DNA of 64,000 nucleotides, taken from positions 3,295,594-3,359,593 of the forward strand of contig OZ255718.1 in NCBI GenBank assembly GCA_965277095.1. Direction: 5' to 3'. Below, one piece after another: positions 1 through 64,000 of the stretch. Made by a program: the position numbers and the translations under genes. The notes below the pieces were generated by a model. That model was not told where the DNA came from, made no database searches, and saw only the letters and a list, made by a program, of their open reading frames with translations. This DNA comes from Capsulimonadaceae bacterium. Lineage in GTDB: Bacteria > Armatimonadota > Armatimonadia > Armatimonadales > Capsulimonadaceae. Every line of letters begins with the position of its first letter. The stretch's first letter is position 1.

Positions 1-83
1 TAGCCTCTGGCCCGACTTGGCCTGGTGTGCTGTCCGACGTACCGGCGGTCTTCGGCAGTTTTTTATCTGAGCCTGCATTTTCA

Positions 84-395
84 ATGGAGGATACGACTTT
101 CTGCATCTGGCGTACACCGTCTGATAGTCACTGGCAGAGGGGTTCTATTGCTTTCCCCTCTGGCCCCGACCCTGACGGCTCGGCGGACTTGTTGTTTATT
201 CTGGATGGTGAGCCAAAGACTTACAAACATTGGGCCGAGGAGTATAATGAAGTGGATGTTAGCCTAGCCGCCGTTGCTCATGTTTATCAGCATCTTCCGT
301 TGACTGCGGAGATTGTCACCGAACTCAATAACGACATCACATTATCAGATTTGGCGGCAGATATAACGGAGATTGGTTATCCGTCGGAAGCTTGA
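84..395 (+). CDS. hypothetical protein (103 aa); cassette truncated by window start
   Basis: ORF track 27..395, first in-frame ATG at 84; attC begins 11 nt after stop. Confidence 0.5.
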   Translation: MEDTTFCIWRTPSDSHWQRGSIAFPSGPDPDGSADLLFILDGEPKTYKHWAEEYNEVDVSLAAVAHVYQHLPLTAEIVTELNNDITLSDLAADITEIGYPSEA

Positions 396-405
396 CCAGC
401 CTGCA

Positions 406-504
406 ATCTAACAATGCGCTGCACCTGACGCCAGCAGCCGCCATTTCGGGTGCTTGGCATTATGCTTGCGTGGCTGCTGTCGCAGGTGAGCTATGGCGTT
501 AGGC
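406..504 (+). repeat. attC site 1
   Basis: R''=ATCTAAC then AATGCGCTGCACCTGACGCC, palindromic centre, GTCGCAGGTGAGCTATGGC then R'=GTTAGGC; arms pair with single-nt bulges. Confidence 0.9.
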
Positions 505-541
505 TGCAAACCAGGGGCGAACCTTTTACGAGAGGCATTGA

Positions 542-877
542 ATGTTAGCCAAGCGTTTATATCAACTAGAAGTGGGTAGCTTTCTCGTCTCATTTATAGT
601 ATTCTGCCTTTGGGGAATTGGTTACTATAGGTTCGGTTTAGACAATTCTGTGCCGCTTTATGTCACGTTCTACCTTTCGCTCGGTATGGGCTTAGTTTTT
701 CTATTTGCTCTGTGGAGTATGCGTATTGGTCTGCGAACCCGTGCTAGACGATTAAGAGTTCGGCTTTTGATTTCGTTTTCTATAATGCTGTTATTAGCGT
801 CCTCAATATGTGGTGAGGCCATATTGATAGTCATGGCGGTCAGGGCAGTAAATGGGTATCCTCAGCAGTGGCTATAA
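542..877 (+). CDS. small membrane protein (111 aa)
   Basis: ORF track; several hydrophobic segments; sole ORF of cassette. Confidence 0.6.
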   Translation: MLAKRLYQLEVGSFLVSFIVFCLWGIGYYRFGLDNSVPLYVTFYLSLGMGLVFLFALWSMRIGLRTRARRLRVRLLISFSIMLLLASSICGEAILIVMAVRAVNGYPQQWL

Positions 878-914
878 GGAAATAGTCCGCTGTAGCATAA
901 AGCTGTGCATTGCA

Positions 915-1013
915 GCCTAACAATGCGCTGCACCCGACGCCACCCGCCCGGTTTCCTATGCATACCCGTTTGGCTGTGCGGGCGGGCGTCGCAGGTGAGC
1001 TATGGCGTTAGGC
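915..1013 (+). repeat. attC site 2
   Basis: R''=GCCTAAC; R'=GTTAGGC. Confidence 0.9.
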
Positions 1014-1188
1014 TCCTATTGCTGGCGTTCTCGTAAGCGTTTTGGAGTTTGGTTGTCGGCTTTTGGCTTGCGTTCTTTGTGAAAAGCTATCCGTCGTGTT
1101 TGTTGGGGTAAAGTATGTAGGAATTGCGGTGTAGGGAAGTGAGCGTTTGGGCGTCGGTTTCTGTATCCCGTTTGCGCTCCCGGCAGTA
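1014..1188 (+). other. ORF-less cassette, family B copy 1/6
   Basis: no frame-conserved ORF; shares TGCTGGCGTTC..TTTGGAG..GGTAAAGTA..GAGCG core with 5 other cargos; near-identical to 42516-42690 and 50098-50272. Confidence 0.6.
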
Positions 1189-1288
1189 GCCTAACAATGC
1201 GCTGCACCTGACGCCAGTAGCCGCCTCTACCCCAGCGTTATCGGAAGGCAGGTTAGGCTACTGTCGCCGGTGAGCTATGGCGTTAGGC
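1189..1288 (+). repeat. attC site 3
   Basis: R''=GCCTAAC; R'=GTTAGGC. Confidence 0.9.
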
Positions 1289-1331
1289 CGCAGGGCCGTA
1301 TTCTATTTTGTAGCGGAAGCCAGATGGACAA

Positions 1332-61508: not shown

Positions 61509-61608
61509 GTCTAACAATGCGCTGCACCCGACGCCAGTAGCCGCGTTGTCCTGTGGGTTGTCGGGTGGTATACTTGGCTACTGTCGCGGGTGAGCTAGGT
61601 CGTTAGAC
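61509..61608 (+). repeat. attC site 122
   Basis: R''=GTCTAAC; R'=GTTAGAC. Confidence 0.9.
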
Positions 61609-61770
61609 CGCTGGGCCGATGCTGGATTTGTCGCGAAGAGCTTACAAAGATGAATACCAAAACAAAGCGGGTCATTTTGTGGCTATTCTGTTTCGTCGGA
61701 GCAGTTTGCCTTGCCGGTACAATATGGCTGCACATTTTACGCGCAAACAATGAGTTAGGGGCAAACAAAG

Positions 61771-62856
61771 ATAGGACTTACGCAGTTGGCCCTAAAGTGA
61801 TGGTCGGGTTCTGCAAATACAGCCGAATAGCCTCCCGAATGAGGCCCGCTTTGGCGGCGTAGCCGCTGATGCCTGTCTGCCATCGGTGTGCTTCTAGGCG
61901 CACAAACGCCCGCAAAGACAACACGATGTGGCACTTCTGGGCCTGTGCGCTCCGTACCTGCGCCCGTTCCACGCCGCAGCACTGCTTCAAGGCACGGTGG
62001 TAGTTCTCGATGGCGAACACCTGGCGCGAAAGGTCGCGCCGCTCGCCCGCTTCCATCTTGAGGTCATCGGTGGCCCAATGCTCCACGTCGCCGTTTGGAG
62101 CGACCGTCCGAAACACCTGGATCATGCCAAAGCCTTTGAGGTGAACCGTGCGCCCATGCTCAGGAACGTCAATGTCTTTAACGGCCACATTGCCCGTGTT
62201 GTCAGGGTTTACCTGGCGGTTGCTTTTTAATCTGGTCAAGAAGTGCCAGCCATGCCCGCGCACGGCTTTGAGGTTTTCAAGGCTTGCATACCAGCCGTCG
62301 AAGCAGACGTACTTGGGGCGGAACCCACGCTCCTTCGCTGTTTGCAGCATCGAGATGAAGTGGTCGTTCTTCGTGGTCTGCGTTTGGCCGTCCGCAGCAG
62401 GCTCGTAGAGGCGGCAGTCGCAGGGCAGGCTGCTGAGGCCATCGGTCCACAAGAGCGTCGTGAGGCTGATGCCTTCGACCACCGCATGATGCTTGCCGCT
62501 CCAGTGGCGGCTCACCAGGCCCATCTTTTGGGCATAAGGCTTGTCTAGCGTGGTGTCGTCCACGACCAGAAGGCCATGCGTCAGTTGCACGAGCGGCTCG
62601 ACCTCTTGCCACAACGCCGCCGTGTCTGGCGGCAGTCTCGTGAGGAGGCGCGTGTACGCATCGTGCGAAGCGTTTACGGCACAACGGGCGGCTTCGGTGC
62701 AGGTGTAGACGCCCTGGGCGGCGATCAGAAACTGGATATAGTCCAGGTCAGTGACTTTCGGCGGGTTCATCATCCAGAGTATGAACGCTCAGACACACGA
62801 AAAGCAACTCTAAGATGACAGAAAATCAACTAAACGCACCAACTGCGTAAGTCCTA
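61771..62856 (-). mobile_element. IS701/IS4-like insertion sequence (1086 bp)
   Basis: perfect 18-nt terminal IRs TAGGACTTACGCAGTTGG; 5-bp target duplication AAAGA (61766-61770 and 62857-62861). Confidence 0.8.
61778..62773 (-). CDS. DDE transposase, IS701/IS4-like (331 aa)
   Basis: ORF track; ..LLVVDDTTLDKPYA..; family assignment from memory. Confidence 0.75.
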   Translation of the reverse strand: MMNPPKVTDLDYIQFLIAAQGVYTCTEAARCAVNASHDAYTRLLTRLPPDTAALWQEVEPLVQLTHGLLVVDDTTLDKPYAQKMGLVSRHWSGKHHAVVEGISLTTLLWTDGLSSLPCDCRLYEPAADGQTQTTKNDHFISMLQTAKERGFRPKYVCFDGWYASLENLKAVRGHGWHFLTRLKSNRQVNPDNTGNVAVKDIDVPEHGRTVHLKGFGMIQVFRTVAPNGDVEHWATDDLKMEAGERRDLSRQVFAIENYHRALKQCCGVERAQVRSAQAQKCHIVLSLRAFVRLEAHRWQTGISGYAAKAGLIREAIRLYLQNPTITLGPTA

Positions 62857-63273
62857 AAAGAGTTAATGGAGGCCGCTCGGCATGACAATCTGCCTCTCGC
62901 TCAAAAAGCACTGCGACATGGAGCTAACGTCAATGCCTGCGATCCCGATGGCTTGACACCCCTGATGTATGCAGCCCAATTCGGTCGTGTTGGAATTGCC
63001 CAAGTTTTATTATCTCATGGCGCATCTGTAAATGCCACCGATTATGCTCATACCACTGTTCTTTCACTCGCGGCAGACAATGGAAATGAAGAAGTGGTTA
63101 CTTTATTGTTGAAGAATGGGGCAGATTTGACAGACGAAAACGTACAACAGGCAGTAGCATTTGCGAGTTCTTATCCACATATCGTTGCTAAATTGAAGGA
63201 AGCCCAGGTACAACAACGTAAGCAAATGAATAGATCATAAAGTCTCGGTAAATAAATCCGGCGTTGCCAGACG

Positions 63274-63372
63274 GTCTAACAATGCGCTGCACCTGACGCC
63301 ACCCGCCCGATTTCCTATGCGTTGGCAGAAGGCTGTGCAAGCGGGTGTCGCAGGTGAGCTATGGCGTTAGAC
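63274..63372 (+). repeat. attC site 123
   Basis: R''=GTCTAAC; R'=GTTAGAC. Confidence 0.9.
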
Positions 63373-63427
63373 CGCTCGAAGTAAGCTATGCTTGGTCGCA
63401 CCCATTTCCAATCTCCCGTTTTGCGGC

Positions 63428-63433
63428 TATAAT
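63428..63433 (+). promoter_or_regulatory. -10 TATAAT 6 nt upstream of brnT ATG (leaderless mRNA predicted)
   Basis: GCGGCTATAATAGC as in the 21585 copy; possible -35 TTCCAA 16 nt upstream. Confidence 0.4.
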
Positions 63434-63439
63434 AGCTTT

Positions 63440-63712
63440 ATGCACTATGCTTGGGACCCCGATAAAGCTGCCAGCAATGTGCAAAAGCATAATGTCTCGT
63501 TTGTAGAAGCGCAAAGCGTTTTTGATGACCCGTTGGCGACAGTCTTTGAGGATGAGCAGCATTCCGAGATGGAAGTGCGCGAGTTTGTCGTTGGGCATTC
63601 CAACCTAAATCGTTTGCTACTGGTTTGCTTTACCGAGCGTCAAGATGGTATTCGTATCTTCAGTGCGCGTCGCGTGACCCGTTTGGAGCGTCAAGACTAT
63701 GAAGACAATTAA
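63440..63712 (+). CDS. brnT: BrnT (DUF497) toxin (90 aa)
   Basis: WDPDKAASNVQKHNVSFVEAQSVFDDPL..LLLVCFTERQDGIRIFSARR. Confidence 0.8.
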   Translation: MHYAWDPDKAASNVQKHNVSFVEAQSVFDDPLATVFEDEQHSEMEVREFVVGHSNLNRLLLVCFTERQDGIRIFSARRVTRLERQDYEDN

Positions 63713-63950
63713 TAATTCTGAATTGAAAATATCCGACCCGGATACAGTTTCTGATGAGCTTTTACCGGAATATCGCTTTGACTATAGCAAAGCGAAGCCT
63801 AACCGTTTTGCCCAGCGTGAAGTCGCGATAAAGACAATCAATTTAGATGCAGATGTTGCGGCTGTATTTACATCAGCAGAAGCAGTAAATACAATTCTAC
63901 GTGCGATCATCCAGACTATGCCCCAAGCCGTTCACCGCGAGACGGTCTAA
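63699..63950 (+). CDS. brnA: BrnA-type antitoxin (83 aa)
   Basis: overlaps brnT; ..LPEYRFDYSKAKPNRFA..NLDADVAAVFTSAEAVNTILRAII..; stop in attC. Confidence 0.75.
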   Translation: MKTINNSELKISDPDTVSDELLPEYRFDYSKAKPNRFAQREVAIKTINLDADVAAVFTSAEAVNTILRAIIQTMPQAVHRETV

Positions 63951-64000
63951 CAATGCGCTGCACCCGACGCCATCGCCCGCCTTTTCGGGTGGGTTATCGG
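63945..64000 (+). repeat. attC site 124 (truncated by window end)
   Basis: R''=GTCTAAC then AATGCGCTGCACCCGACGCC; right arm lies outside the window. Confidence 0.85.

Follow-up and report, generated by a model that had tools for sequence, protein, structure and literature searches.

The 64,000-nt stretch of the Capsulimonadaceae contig OZ255718.1 analysed here (hereafter the window, in whose numbering all site and cassette coordinates are given) is, with high confidence, a genuine integron cassette array. There is strong support for reading it as an inner part of a very large array of cassettes, with at least 124 attC sites and of the sedentary chromosomal type. The identification of its repeats as integron attC sites is equally strongly supported, and the attC and cassette properties that were tested for were found.

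The sites were searched for with a pattern of the left arm (AATGCGCTGCACCNGACGCC, at most three mismatches, both strands), with dinucleotide-preserving shuffles as control. The pattern matches 124 times, always on the + strand, against 0.01 matches expected from the shuffles, and each of the 124 left arms is preceded by a heptamer RYYYAAC, the R'' box, found as GCCTAAC (36), GTCTAAC (35), ATCTAAC (22), ACCTAAC (18), GCCCAAC (12), or GTCCAAC (1). Complete attC units number 123 and are 90-108 bp long (mode 100); they end with GTCGC(A/G/C)GGTGAGCT..G..GTTRRRY, the R' core fitting GTTRRRY in 121 of them and being mutated to TTTAGGC in site 88, and a further site, attC 124, is interrupted by the window end. 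The sites delimit 122 complete cassettes of 257-2077 bp (median 470) and an incomplete cassette at either window edge, the left one partial and the right one with a truncated attC; the mean attC-to-attC spacing is 516 bp. Relaxed searches revealed neither orphan half-sites nor minus-strand sites in the window. A first-pass annotation had described 124 attC sites and about 123 cassettes, with all repeats in a single orientation, spaced by about 520 bp, opening with RYYYAAC and closing with GTTRRRY; the pattern search returns the same counts (122 complete cassettes plus the edge partials), orientation, spacing, and cores. For a sedentary chromosomal integron (SCI), for which more than 10-19 attC sites are called for, 124 were counted here, and they are homogeneous, with arms 89% and centres 51% identical and with 122 of the 123 sequences distinct. 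Large SCIs have a median of about 100 cassettes and reach about 200 (PMC5371416). The 124 or more sites of the array exceed this median, and its earlier description as one of the largest is justified when taken as a minimum.

The crossover point in integrons is G|TT within GTTRRRY, and the opening TTRRRY of a cassette therefore belongs with its own downstream attC. In the window, the R' of a site is perfectly complementary to the R'' of the following site in 113 of 123 cases (114 with the corrected end of site 105), versus 31 of 123 for the R'' of the same site, and random pairing of R' and R'' boxes gives 26.4 +/- 4.4 (maximum 42, 2000 permutations). With the true partner, pairing continues beyond the 7-bp box for a median of 5 extra bp, and for at least 4 bp in 68 of 123 cases; the corresponding figures for wrong partners are a median of 0 and 15-20 of 123. 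The bases that follow GTTRRRY are conserved as well, CGC being present at +2 to +4 in about 95% of the cassettes. Together, this pairing past the 7-bp box and the conserved CGC suggest that the functional site in a circular cassette is longer than about 100 bp.

By definition, attC sites have R and L boxes, a spacer of 5-6 nt per arm, and extrahelical bases, namely one at position 16 in L'' (usually G) and a T at position 23/24, separated by a 6-bp stem (PMC5027507). Folded with DNA parameters, the bottom (-) strand of the window sites is predicted to form an R stem, an unpaired spacer, an L stem with one bulge, 2 bp, a bulged T, and finally a variable stem with its tip, and it is predicted to be more stable than the top strand in 97 of 123 sites. 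The R box consists of 7 bp, the unpaired spacer of 5 nt in one arm and of 6 nt (114 sites) or 7 nt (9 sites) in the other, and 11-13 of the 13 positions of the L box and adjoining stem are paired in all sites. Counted from the bottom-strand 3' end, every one of the 123 sites has its bulges at positions 16 and 23, with 6 bp in between, and T23 is invariant; the single-nucleotide bulges noticed at first pass, including the extra G in GCTGCAC, are real and fixed at these two positions. The geometry agrees with the published positions and spacings except for base 16 (PMC5027507).

The stem additionally varies in a compensated manner. Pair 31/82 is found as AU (56), GC (43), CG (17), GU (5), or UA (2), and is never broken, pair 30/83 is found as CG (70) and UA (47), and double compensatory changes affect 8 of the 16 consensus pairs. 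A covariance model, R1, was built from 10 plasmid-integron attC sites of Proteobacteria (aadA2, aadB, catB3, gcu, blaOXA-1, aacA4, blaIMP-45, blaVIM, and two from Diaphorobacter), whose centres were trimmed to about 60 nt and which were given the canonical structure of R box, L box, and extrahelical bases. It produces 112 full-length matches in the window (23-43 bits, E 9e-9 to 2e-3), all of them on the + strand at attC coordinates, and none outside the listed attC sites on either strand. The covariance-model check suggested at first pass, run with this 10-site substitute, recovers 112 of the 123 complete sites and nothing else. Rfam, which has no attC family, gives no match in the window at gathering thresholds; one match to Fibro-purF, of 22 bits and lying over an attC, in a permissive Rfam scan was taken as chance.

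As GC-rich imperfect palindromes of about 100 bp that follow ORFs (open reading frames), the repeats bear a superficial likeness to terminators and to repetitive extragenic palindromic (REP) sequences, bacterial interspersed mosaic elements (BIMEs), or miniature inverted-repeat transposable elements (MITEs), which spread without integron machinery. This explanation is effectively refuted, and we leave it next to no probability: all 124 repeats share one orientation and none is found on the other strand, the complementarity of the flanking cores follows the cassettes and not the sites, the bulge geometry is exactly that of attC, a model of mobile-integron attC sites specifically matches the repeats, and about nine other contigs carry this repeat in linkage with intI and attI (see below). 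As for terminators, a scan of the window found 24, with 24.9 expected, i.e., no excess. The choice of an integron over REP or MITE elements made in the first-pass annotation is thus borne out by the cassette-boundary, exact-boundary cassette duplication, geometry, covariation, covariance-model, and integrase-linkage tests, all of which favour attC.

The linkage to an integrase comes from related loci. When one genome per species was scanned with the 23-nt left arm, 35 loci were obtained, 31 of which are from metagenome-assembled genomes (MAGs) of Armatimonadota (Armatimonadales, Capsulimonadaceae); none of the 35 has an attC density like that of the window. A metagenome scan added 75 further contigs with this attC type. 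In four of the loci (L032, L035, L023, and L022), an integron integrase adjoins the attC sites, upstream of the R''-to-R' cassettes and divergent from them, and intI is found in the same divergent geometry in five of the metagenome contigs (L068, L118, L097, L048, and L086), i.e., in about nine contigs in all. Against TIGR02249 ("integron integrase"; cutoff 265), the L032 integrase scores 462.9 bits. It shares 52.8% identity with annotated IntI1, and its alignment with the V. cholerae IntI structure 2A3V (E=6e-94) covers the full length, integron-specific insertion and catalytic motifs included. Moreover, L032 and L035 have in common an attI-like region between intI and the first cassette (L032 1750-1990, minus strand; L035 960-1145), which ends with ...AATACTTGTTAGACC, has the core GTTAGAC, and contains several GCGGTAAAA/TACCGC repeats that are candidate IntI binding sites.

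Judging from its distribution in these scans, the attC type is characteristic of Armatimonadota, and in this analysis the window was assigned to that phylum by its attC type. The type is also present on short contigs binned to three other phyla or classes, namely L012 (Sphingomonas MAG), L027 (Chromatiales MAG), and L031 (Pirellulales MAG), which could reflect mis-binning or horizontal cassette transfer; L012, with four sites, is from the same sample series as Armatimonadetes MAGs. In one metagenome contig, L051, the integron integrase (8-862) is more divergent, sharing 59% identity with the L032 IntI, and is encoded by the strand that also carries the attC (1733), as opposed to the divergent arrangement of the other nine cases. 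A full-text literature search returned nothing relevant on integrons in Armatimonadota or Armatimonadetes, and the IntegronFinder 2.0 survey, in which Gammaproteobacteria account for 93% of complete integrons, does not mention Armatimonadota (PMC9024848).

The architecture of the family implies an intI-attI platform for this replicon too, and we consider it probable that one is located upstream of the window, where the first-pass annotation predicted it (left of position 1). No PLSDB plasmid carries this attC type by blastn. The GC skew of the + strand is uniform across the window (+0.09), with T in excess over A; if this skew reflects replication, the attC bottom strands would be on the leading-strand template, as they are in 25 of 30 SCIs, including all large ones (PMC5371416).

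Several points weigh against the window being part of a complete chromosomal integron built on canonical attC sites. Neither an integrase gene (tblastn, Pfam), as already stated at first pass, nor attI was found in the 64-kb window, the window does not itself show where the array is located, and the direction of replication is taken from skew alone. Base 16 is C in all 123 sites, the usual base being G. Model R1 misses 11 of the 123 sites, mainly those whose spacer is 7 nt long or whose R' is mutated, and is a home-made substitute, with 10 training sites only, for the curated IntegronFinder attC model. C16 is found in real plasmid blaVIM and gcu attC sites as well; it was accordingly dropped as a novelty and is regarded as a minority variant.

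The lack of intI in 64 kb is also what a cluster of attC sites lacking an integron-integrase (CALIN) would show, that is, a true attC cluster that is either a fossil or served only in trans by another IntI, its own integrase having been lost, inactivated, or split off by rearrangement. Damaged integrases do occur among the relatives (the match is partial in L022 and split-frame in L097 and L048), three insertion sequence (IS) or transposase copies are present in the array, and one R', in site 88, is mutated. We still hold such a cluster to be rather unlikely: an internal array segment of 64 kb is not expected to include intI anyway, and nearly all attC sites are intact, with 121 of 123 R' cores canonical. 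Furthermore, two pairs of cassettes, c13/c44 and c12/c111, are 100% identical copies with exact G|TT boundaries, which, as far as sequence can tell, indicate recent integrase action, and, in surveys, the number of attC sites is lower in large CALINs than in complete sedentary integrons (PMC9024848).

A real array might also have had its length or order inflated by assembly error, which would make the count of 124 unreliable. Highly similar 100-bp repeats every 500 bp or so make assembly difficult, related MAGs show visible breaks at the repeats, and some cassettes are exact duplicates. Most cassette junctions are nevertheless unique, because 122 of the 123 attC sites are distinct and 81 cassette bodies occur only once; the copies of c13/c44 and c12/c111 have different neighbours on both sides, and the skew is uniform across the window. 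An inflated array is accordingly very unlikely, and a genuine, very large integron array remains the preferred reading.

In the mechanism proposed for this array, the unit would be a mobile cassette that begins at the TT of one GTTRRRY core, ends with the G of the following core, and has its own attC of about 100 bp at the 3' end. The attC bottom strand would fold into a 7-bp R box, a spacer, an L box with extrahelical base 16, an extrahelical T23, and a variable top, and the IntI tyrosine recombinase would bind the strand in this folded form. Recombination between two attC sites by IntI would excise cassettes as circles, which would then re-enter the array at its head, at attI, by a cut between G and TT. 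This scheme of IntI binding, excision, and re-insertion is established integron biology. The intI and attI of the window itself would be to the left of position 1, and the array would probably be on the chromosome, with its bottom strands on the leading-strand template. Toxin-antitoxin (TA) cassettes may stabilise it, and the abundant gene-less cassettes may supply internal promoters.

These gene-less cassettes, 29 in number, make up about a quarter of all cassettes; they are 257-277 bp long, have bodies of 173-181 bp with no conserved ORF, and fall into families A (21 members, 68-99% identity), B (6), and C (2). Family A is found along the whole array, every 3-8 cassettes, and is followed by a cassette with a sense ORF in 12 of 21 cases. 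Its ends are invariant (TTAGATCGCTTGCGGCAAAAGGCT ... GGGCAAGCCATCTAAC), 1-2-nt indels break the frame, and modules are mixed as a mosaic. The sense strand of the 17 majority members contains TTGCTT-N17-TGCTATTAT, a promoter-like combination of a weak -35 and an extended -10. In a sigma-70 scan, this motif scores 3/6 on the -35 and falls below the threshold, with one member listed, and the promoter reading therefore draws on the extended -10 and on the analogy with Vibrio. Sense promoter activity displayed by gene-less cassettes has been shown experimentally in Vibrio and Treponema integrons, and in-silico promoter prediction in such cassettes is unreliable (PMC11014356). A structured RNA was considered for family A and finds no covariation support: the RNAalifold covariation term is +0.24, and the sole long helix, which is invariant and corresponds to the extended R stem, was rejected as evidence for an RNA gene.

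In the L035 integron, the second cassette is a 71%-identical homologue of family A, and the conserved 5' motif of the family was not found in the metagenome collection. Each family A cassette has, just within its 5' end, a motif, GCGGCAAAAGG, similar to the attI repeats GCGGTAAAA/TACCGC of the relatives. Four of the six family B cassettes (c26, c39, c97, and c117) are directly downstream of a family A cassette, which suggests that A-B pairs move or are kept together. Among the possible functions of the gene-less cassettes, that of internal promoter cassettes is the one that our analysis would favour, albeit tentatively and at somewhat less than even odds. A broader proposal is more doubtful still, namely that the array is an independently evolved superintegron of Vibrio scale outside Pseudomonadota, in which family A would consist of self-amplifying promoter relays (or small-RNA genes), spread by the integrase and serving expression of a long array.

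As to coding content, the best ORFs of at least 50 aa are mostly on the + strand (85, versus 17 on the - strand), and most of the 90 window ORFs of at least 60 aa have no family match in Pfam. Type II TA cassettes number at least six (Table 1), the toxin of one of them, c18, being ParE-like and just under the Pfam cutoff; other recognisable products are an NYN-domain protein and ankyrin and TPR proteins, a 401-aa ankyrin-repeat protein being encoded by the largest cassette, c22. PADLOC gave scattered single-protein matches in the window and no complete defence system. With c29, the duplicates c12 and c111 form a three-copy family encoding a protein of about 102 aa (4897-5205, 14220-14576, and 57067-57372), whose matches to DUF6793 and to the ribosomal protein L7/L12 C-terminal domain are weak and below threshold.

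Two identical 873-bp ISs are inserted in the array. Their IS4/IS5-type DDE transposase has a DUF4096 N-terminus, and they are bounded by terminal inverted repeats of about 21 bp (CTAGAGCCTGTTATGRACTTT). The two copies are 4.6 kb apart, 100% identical, and in inverted orientation, and the attC sites between them are not inverted. A third transposase gene is found in a 1764-bp cassette near the right end of the window.

Table 1. Features of the window. attC rows are based on the left-arm pattern and R-box pairing; CM, also matched by covariance model R1.
Feature	Coordinates	Strand	Remarks
Integron cassette array	1..64000	+	open at both ends; R''->R' on + strand; 124 attC, 122 complete cassettes
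attC 1	406..504	+	CM
attC 2	915..1013	+	CM
attC 3	1189..1288	+	CM
attC 4	1484..1582	+	CM
attC 5	1992..2081	+	CM
attC 6	2256..2347	+	CM
attC 7	2552..2651	+	CM
attC 8	3048..3147	+	CM
attC 9	3317..3415	+	CM
attC 10	4011..4111	+	CM
attC 11	4478..4569	+	CM
attC 12	4739..4846	+	CM
attC 13	5258..5357	+	CM
attC 14	5717..5816	+	CM
attC 15	6430..6529	+	CM
attC 16	6853..6953	+	CM
attC 17	7357..7457	+	CM
attC 18	7627..7726	+	CM
attC 19	8265..8366	+	CM
attC 20	8540..8641	+	CM
attC 21	8912..9012	+	CM
attC 22	9384..9482	+	CM
attC 23	11461..11559	+	CM
attC 24	12233..12332	+	CM
attC 25	12571..12670	+	CM
attC 26	12843..12944	+	CM
attC 27	13117..13207	+	CM
attC 28	13382..13482	+	CM
attC 29	14120..14220	+	CM
attC 30	14632..14730	+	CM
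attC 31	15100..15200	+	CM
attC 32	15573..15673	+	CM
attC 33	16061..16160	+	CM
attC 34	16392..16491	+	CM
attC 35	16666..16766	+	pattern + R boxes
attC 36	17221..17321	+	CM
attC 37	17710..17809	+	pattern + R boxes
attC 38	18479..18577	+	CM
attC 39	18751..18850	+	CM
attC 40	19025..19116	+	CM
attC 41	19610..19710	+	pattern + R boxes
attC 42	20143..20244	+	CM
attC 43	20699..20798	+	CM
attC 44	20972..21071	+	pattern + R boxes
attC 45	21431..21530	+	CM
attC 46	22123..22221	+	CM
attC 47	22537..22636	+	CM
attC 48	22976..23077	+	CM
attC 49	23520..23621	+	CM
attC 50	23899..24000	+	CM
attC 51	24472..24568	+	CM
attC 52	24826..24924	+	CM
attC 53	25640..25738	+	CM
attC 54	26109..26209	+	pattern + R boxes
attC 55	26774..26873	+	CM
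attC 56	27655..27753	+	CM
attC 57	28062..28159	+	CM
attC 58	29118..29215	+	CM
attC 59	29383..29472	+	CM
attC 60	30117..30215	+	CM
attC 61	30732..30830	+	CM
attC 62	31398..31500	+	pattern + R boxes
attC 63	31900..31999	+	CM
attC 64	33139..33238	+	CM
attC 65	33670..33770	+	CM
attC 66	33943..34044	+	CM
attC 67	34701..34800	+	CM
attC 68	35293..35393	+	CM
attC 69	36041..36140	+	CM
attC 70	36418..36519	+	CM
attC 71	36765..36864	+	CM
attC 72	37260..37359	+	CM
attC 73	37732..37823	+	CM
attC 74	38464..38564	+	CM
attC 75	38738..38840	+	pattern + R boxes
attC 76	39229..39327	+	CM
attC 77	39807..39906	+	CM
attC 78	40081..40183	+	pattern + R boxes
attC 79	40626..40725	+	CM
attC 80	41400..41498	+	CM
attC 81	42037..42137	+	CM
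attC 82	42416..42515	+	CM
attC 83	42691..42790	+	pattern + R boxes
attC 84	43137..43236	+	CM
attC 85	43409..43508	+	CM
attC 86	43678..43779	+	CM
attC 87	44049..44147	+	CM
attC 88	44401..44490	+	R' = TTTAGGC; pattern + R boxes
attC 89	44770..44871	+	CM
attC 90	45046..45147	+	CM
attC 91	45492..45591	+	CM
attC 92	46903..47002	+	CM
attC 93	47373..47472	+	CM
attC 94	47910..48009	+	CM
attC 95	49219..49319	+	CM
attC 96	49728..49827	+	CM
attC 97	49999..50097	+	CM
attC 98	50273..50371	+	CM
attC 99	50539..50628	+	CM
attC 100	50801..50903	+	pattern + R boxes
attC 101	52238..52337	+	CM
attC 102	52724..52823	+	CM
attC 103	53263..53355	+	CM
attC 104	53765..53863	+	CM
attC 105	54489..54581	+	CM
attC 106	54841..54942	+	CM
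attC 107	55380..55477	+	CM
attC 108	55648..55749	+	CM
attC 109	55922..56022	+	arms most divergent; CM
attC 110	56396..56496	+	CM
attC 111	56916..57016	+	CM
attC 112	57428..57527	+	CM
attC 113	57773..57872	+	CM
attC 114	58082..58181	+	CM
attC 115	58682..58781	+	CM
attC 116	59080..59179	+	CM
attC 117	59352..59453	+	CM
attC 118	59622..59724	+	CM
attC 119	60056..60155	+	CM
attC 120	60657..60755	+	CM
attC 121	61126..61223	+	CM
attC 122	61509..61608	+	CM
attC 123	63274..63372	+	CM
attC 124	63945..64000	+	cut by window end; left arm only
Gene-less c5	2076..2341	+	family A
Gene-less c8	3142..3409	+	family A
Gene-less c11	4564..4840	+	family A
Gene-less c17	7452..7720	+	family A, variant middle
Gene-less c19	8361..8635	+	family A
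Gene-less c25	12665..12938	+	family A
Gene-less c27	13202..13476	+	family A
Gene-less c34	16486..16760	+	family A
Gene-less c38	18572..18844	+	family A
Gene-less c43	20793..21065	+	family A
Gene-less c65	33765..34038	+	family A
Gene-less c74	38559..38834	+	family A
Gene-less c77	39901..40177	+	family A
Gene-less c84	43231..43502	+	family A
Gene-less c85	43503..43773	+	family A, variant middle
Gene-less c89	44866..45141	+	family A
Gene-less c96	49822..50091	+	family A, variant middle
Gene-less c99	50623..50897	+	family A
Gene-less c107	55472..55743	+	family A, variant middle
Gene-less c108	55744..56016	+	family A
Gene-less c116	59174..59447	+	family A
Gene-less c2	1008..1282	+	family B
Gene-less c26	12939..13201	+	family B
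Gene-less c39	18845..19110	+	family B
Gene-less c82	42510..42784	+	family B
Gene-less c97	50092..50365	+	family B
Gene-less c117	59448..59718	+	family B
Gene-less c58	29210..29466	+	family C
Gene-less c98	50366..50622	+	family C
TA-type c18	7721..8360	+	65-aa ORF 7800-7997; ParE-like toxin 7982-8248
TA c28	13477..14214	+	94-aa ORF 13499-13783; MazF/PemK toxin 13756-14103
TA c45	21525..22215	+	BrnT toxin 21597-21878; partner ORF 21820-22128
TA c60	30210..30824	+	HicB antitoxin 30274-30492; HicA toxin 30489-30692
TA c68	35388..36134	+	DUF433 35443-35667; DUF5615/PIN-like 35678-36010
TA c104	53858..54575	+	BrnT toxin 53927-54244; partner ORF 54201-54494
Largest cassette c22	9477..11553	+	2077 bp; 401-aa ankyrin-repeat protein 9489-10694; 226-aa ORF 10699-11379
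Cassette c13	5352..5810	+	459 bp; 100% identical to c44; identity stops at G|TT on both sides
Cassette c44	21066..21524	+	100% identical to c13
Cassette c12	4841..5351	+	511 bp; 100% identical to c111; identity stops at G|TT
Cassette c111	57011..57521	+	100% identical to c12
Cassette c29	14215..14724		paralogue of c12, about 91%
873-bp IS, first copy	45765..46637	-	in c91; IS4/IS5-type DDE transposase, 273 aa, 45785-46606
873-bp IS, second copy	51274..52146	+	in c100; identical, inverted
Third transposase gene	61778..62773	-	in c122 (1764 bp); DDE_5/DDE_Tnp_1, 331 aa

The window can be compared first with its relatives. L032 (Capsulimonadaceae, CBDCAE010000008.1) and L035 (JANXMY010000008.1) match its 23-nt left arm exactly and have the full platform visible, i.e., intI (TIGR02249), attI, and cassettes. 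Unlike the window, the related Armatimonadota arrays consist of short stretches or fragments, no examined locus having more than 15 attC sites, and only 4 of the 122 window cassettes are common to them; the TA cassettes are the main ones with homologues in these arrays, at 67-80% identity.

The attC sites of class 1 integrons (aadA, aadB, and catB3) share with those of the window the succession of a 7-nt R'', a 5-nt spacer, an 8-nt L'' that includes one bulge, 2 bp, and a bulge, as well as a 7-nt L', a 6-nt spacer, and a 7-nt R' in the other arm; 16-17 of the 23 left-arm bases are in common. In contrast, mobile attC sites are about 60 bp long with a 3-nt tip, whereas those of the window are about 100 bp long, with a longer stem and a variable tip. 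The likeness is one of family-level architecture and not of recent common origin, because no plasmid carries this attC type by blastn. The aadA-type left arm named in the first-pass annotation has to be qualified in the same way: the resemblance to real plasmid aadA2 and aadB attC sites holds, but it reflects generic architecture and not close kinship. Kinship with mobile-integron attC sites was rejected, the plasmid blastn giving only chance 38-nt matches inside ATPase genes. By eye, the closest of the mobile-integron sites examined is the catB2 attC (L042, reverse complement of 2273-2345, plasmid CP071789.1), whose L' GGTGAGC and L'' GCT-N-CAC are as in the window; descent of catB2 attC from the lineage of the window was considered and dropped, with 15/23 left-arm and 10/13 right-arm positions in common. 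In a Klebsiella plasmid integron drawn on for training data (L041, 5024-6277), a group II intron reverse transcriptase/maturase directly follows the arr-2 gene, and no attC was recovered at this locus where one is expected after the gene.

What is known of massive integrons, regarding their stability, the expression of distal cassettes, and their stored content, comes nearly all from Vibrio. The array described here is large, taxonomically unexpected, and mechanistically ordinary; it is a textbook sedentary-type cassette array and alters no principle of integron biology. As an equally large array, with canonical attC geometry in a distant and little-studied phylum, it would constitute an independent natural replicate. 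The recurrence of TA cassettes, of the predicted leading-strand-template orientation, and of gene-less cassettes supports the idea that these are general requirements for large arrays and not peculiar to Vibrio. Some 90 small ORFs are contained in the array, most of them without a known family, and its attC type could serve to assign environmental cassettes to Armatimonadota.

The V. cholerae superintegron has about 180 cassettes in about 126 kb, which implies about 700 bp per cassette; by these figures, the cassettes of the window, at about 516 bp on average, are somewhat shorter. Like the window, Vibrio superintegrons consist of a hundred cassettes or more in a single orientation, with uniform attC arms and variable centres, and their cassettes are short, mostly of unknown function, and include multiple TA and gene-less cassettes as well as IS insertions. 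Their attC bottom strands are likewise inferred to be on the leading-strand template. The differences concern the phylum, the attC type of the window being found in Armatimonadota MAGs whereas Vibrio belongs to the Gammaproteobacteria, and the sites themselves: V. cholerae repeats (VCRs) are unrelated in sequence, measure about 120-130 bp as compared with about 100 bp, and have three extrahelical bases, the first of which is G, whereas the window sites have two, the first of which is C. Finally, the very high share of gene-less paralogues in the window, including a family of 21 copies, differs from the Vibrio paradigm.

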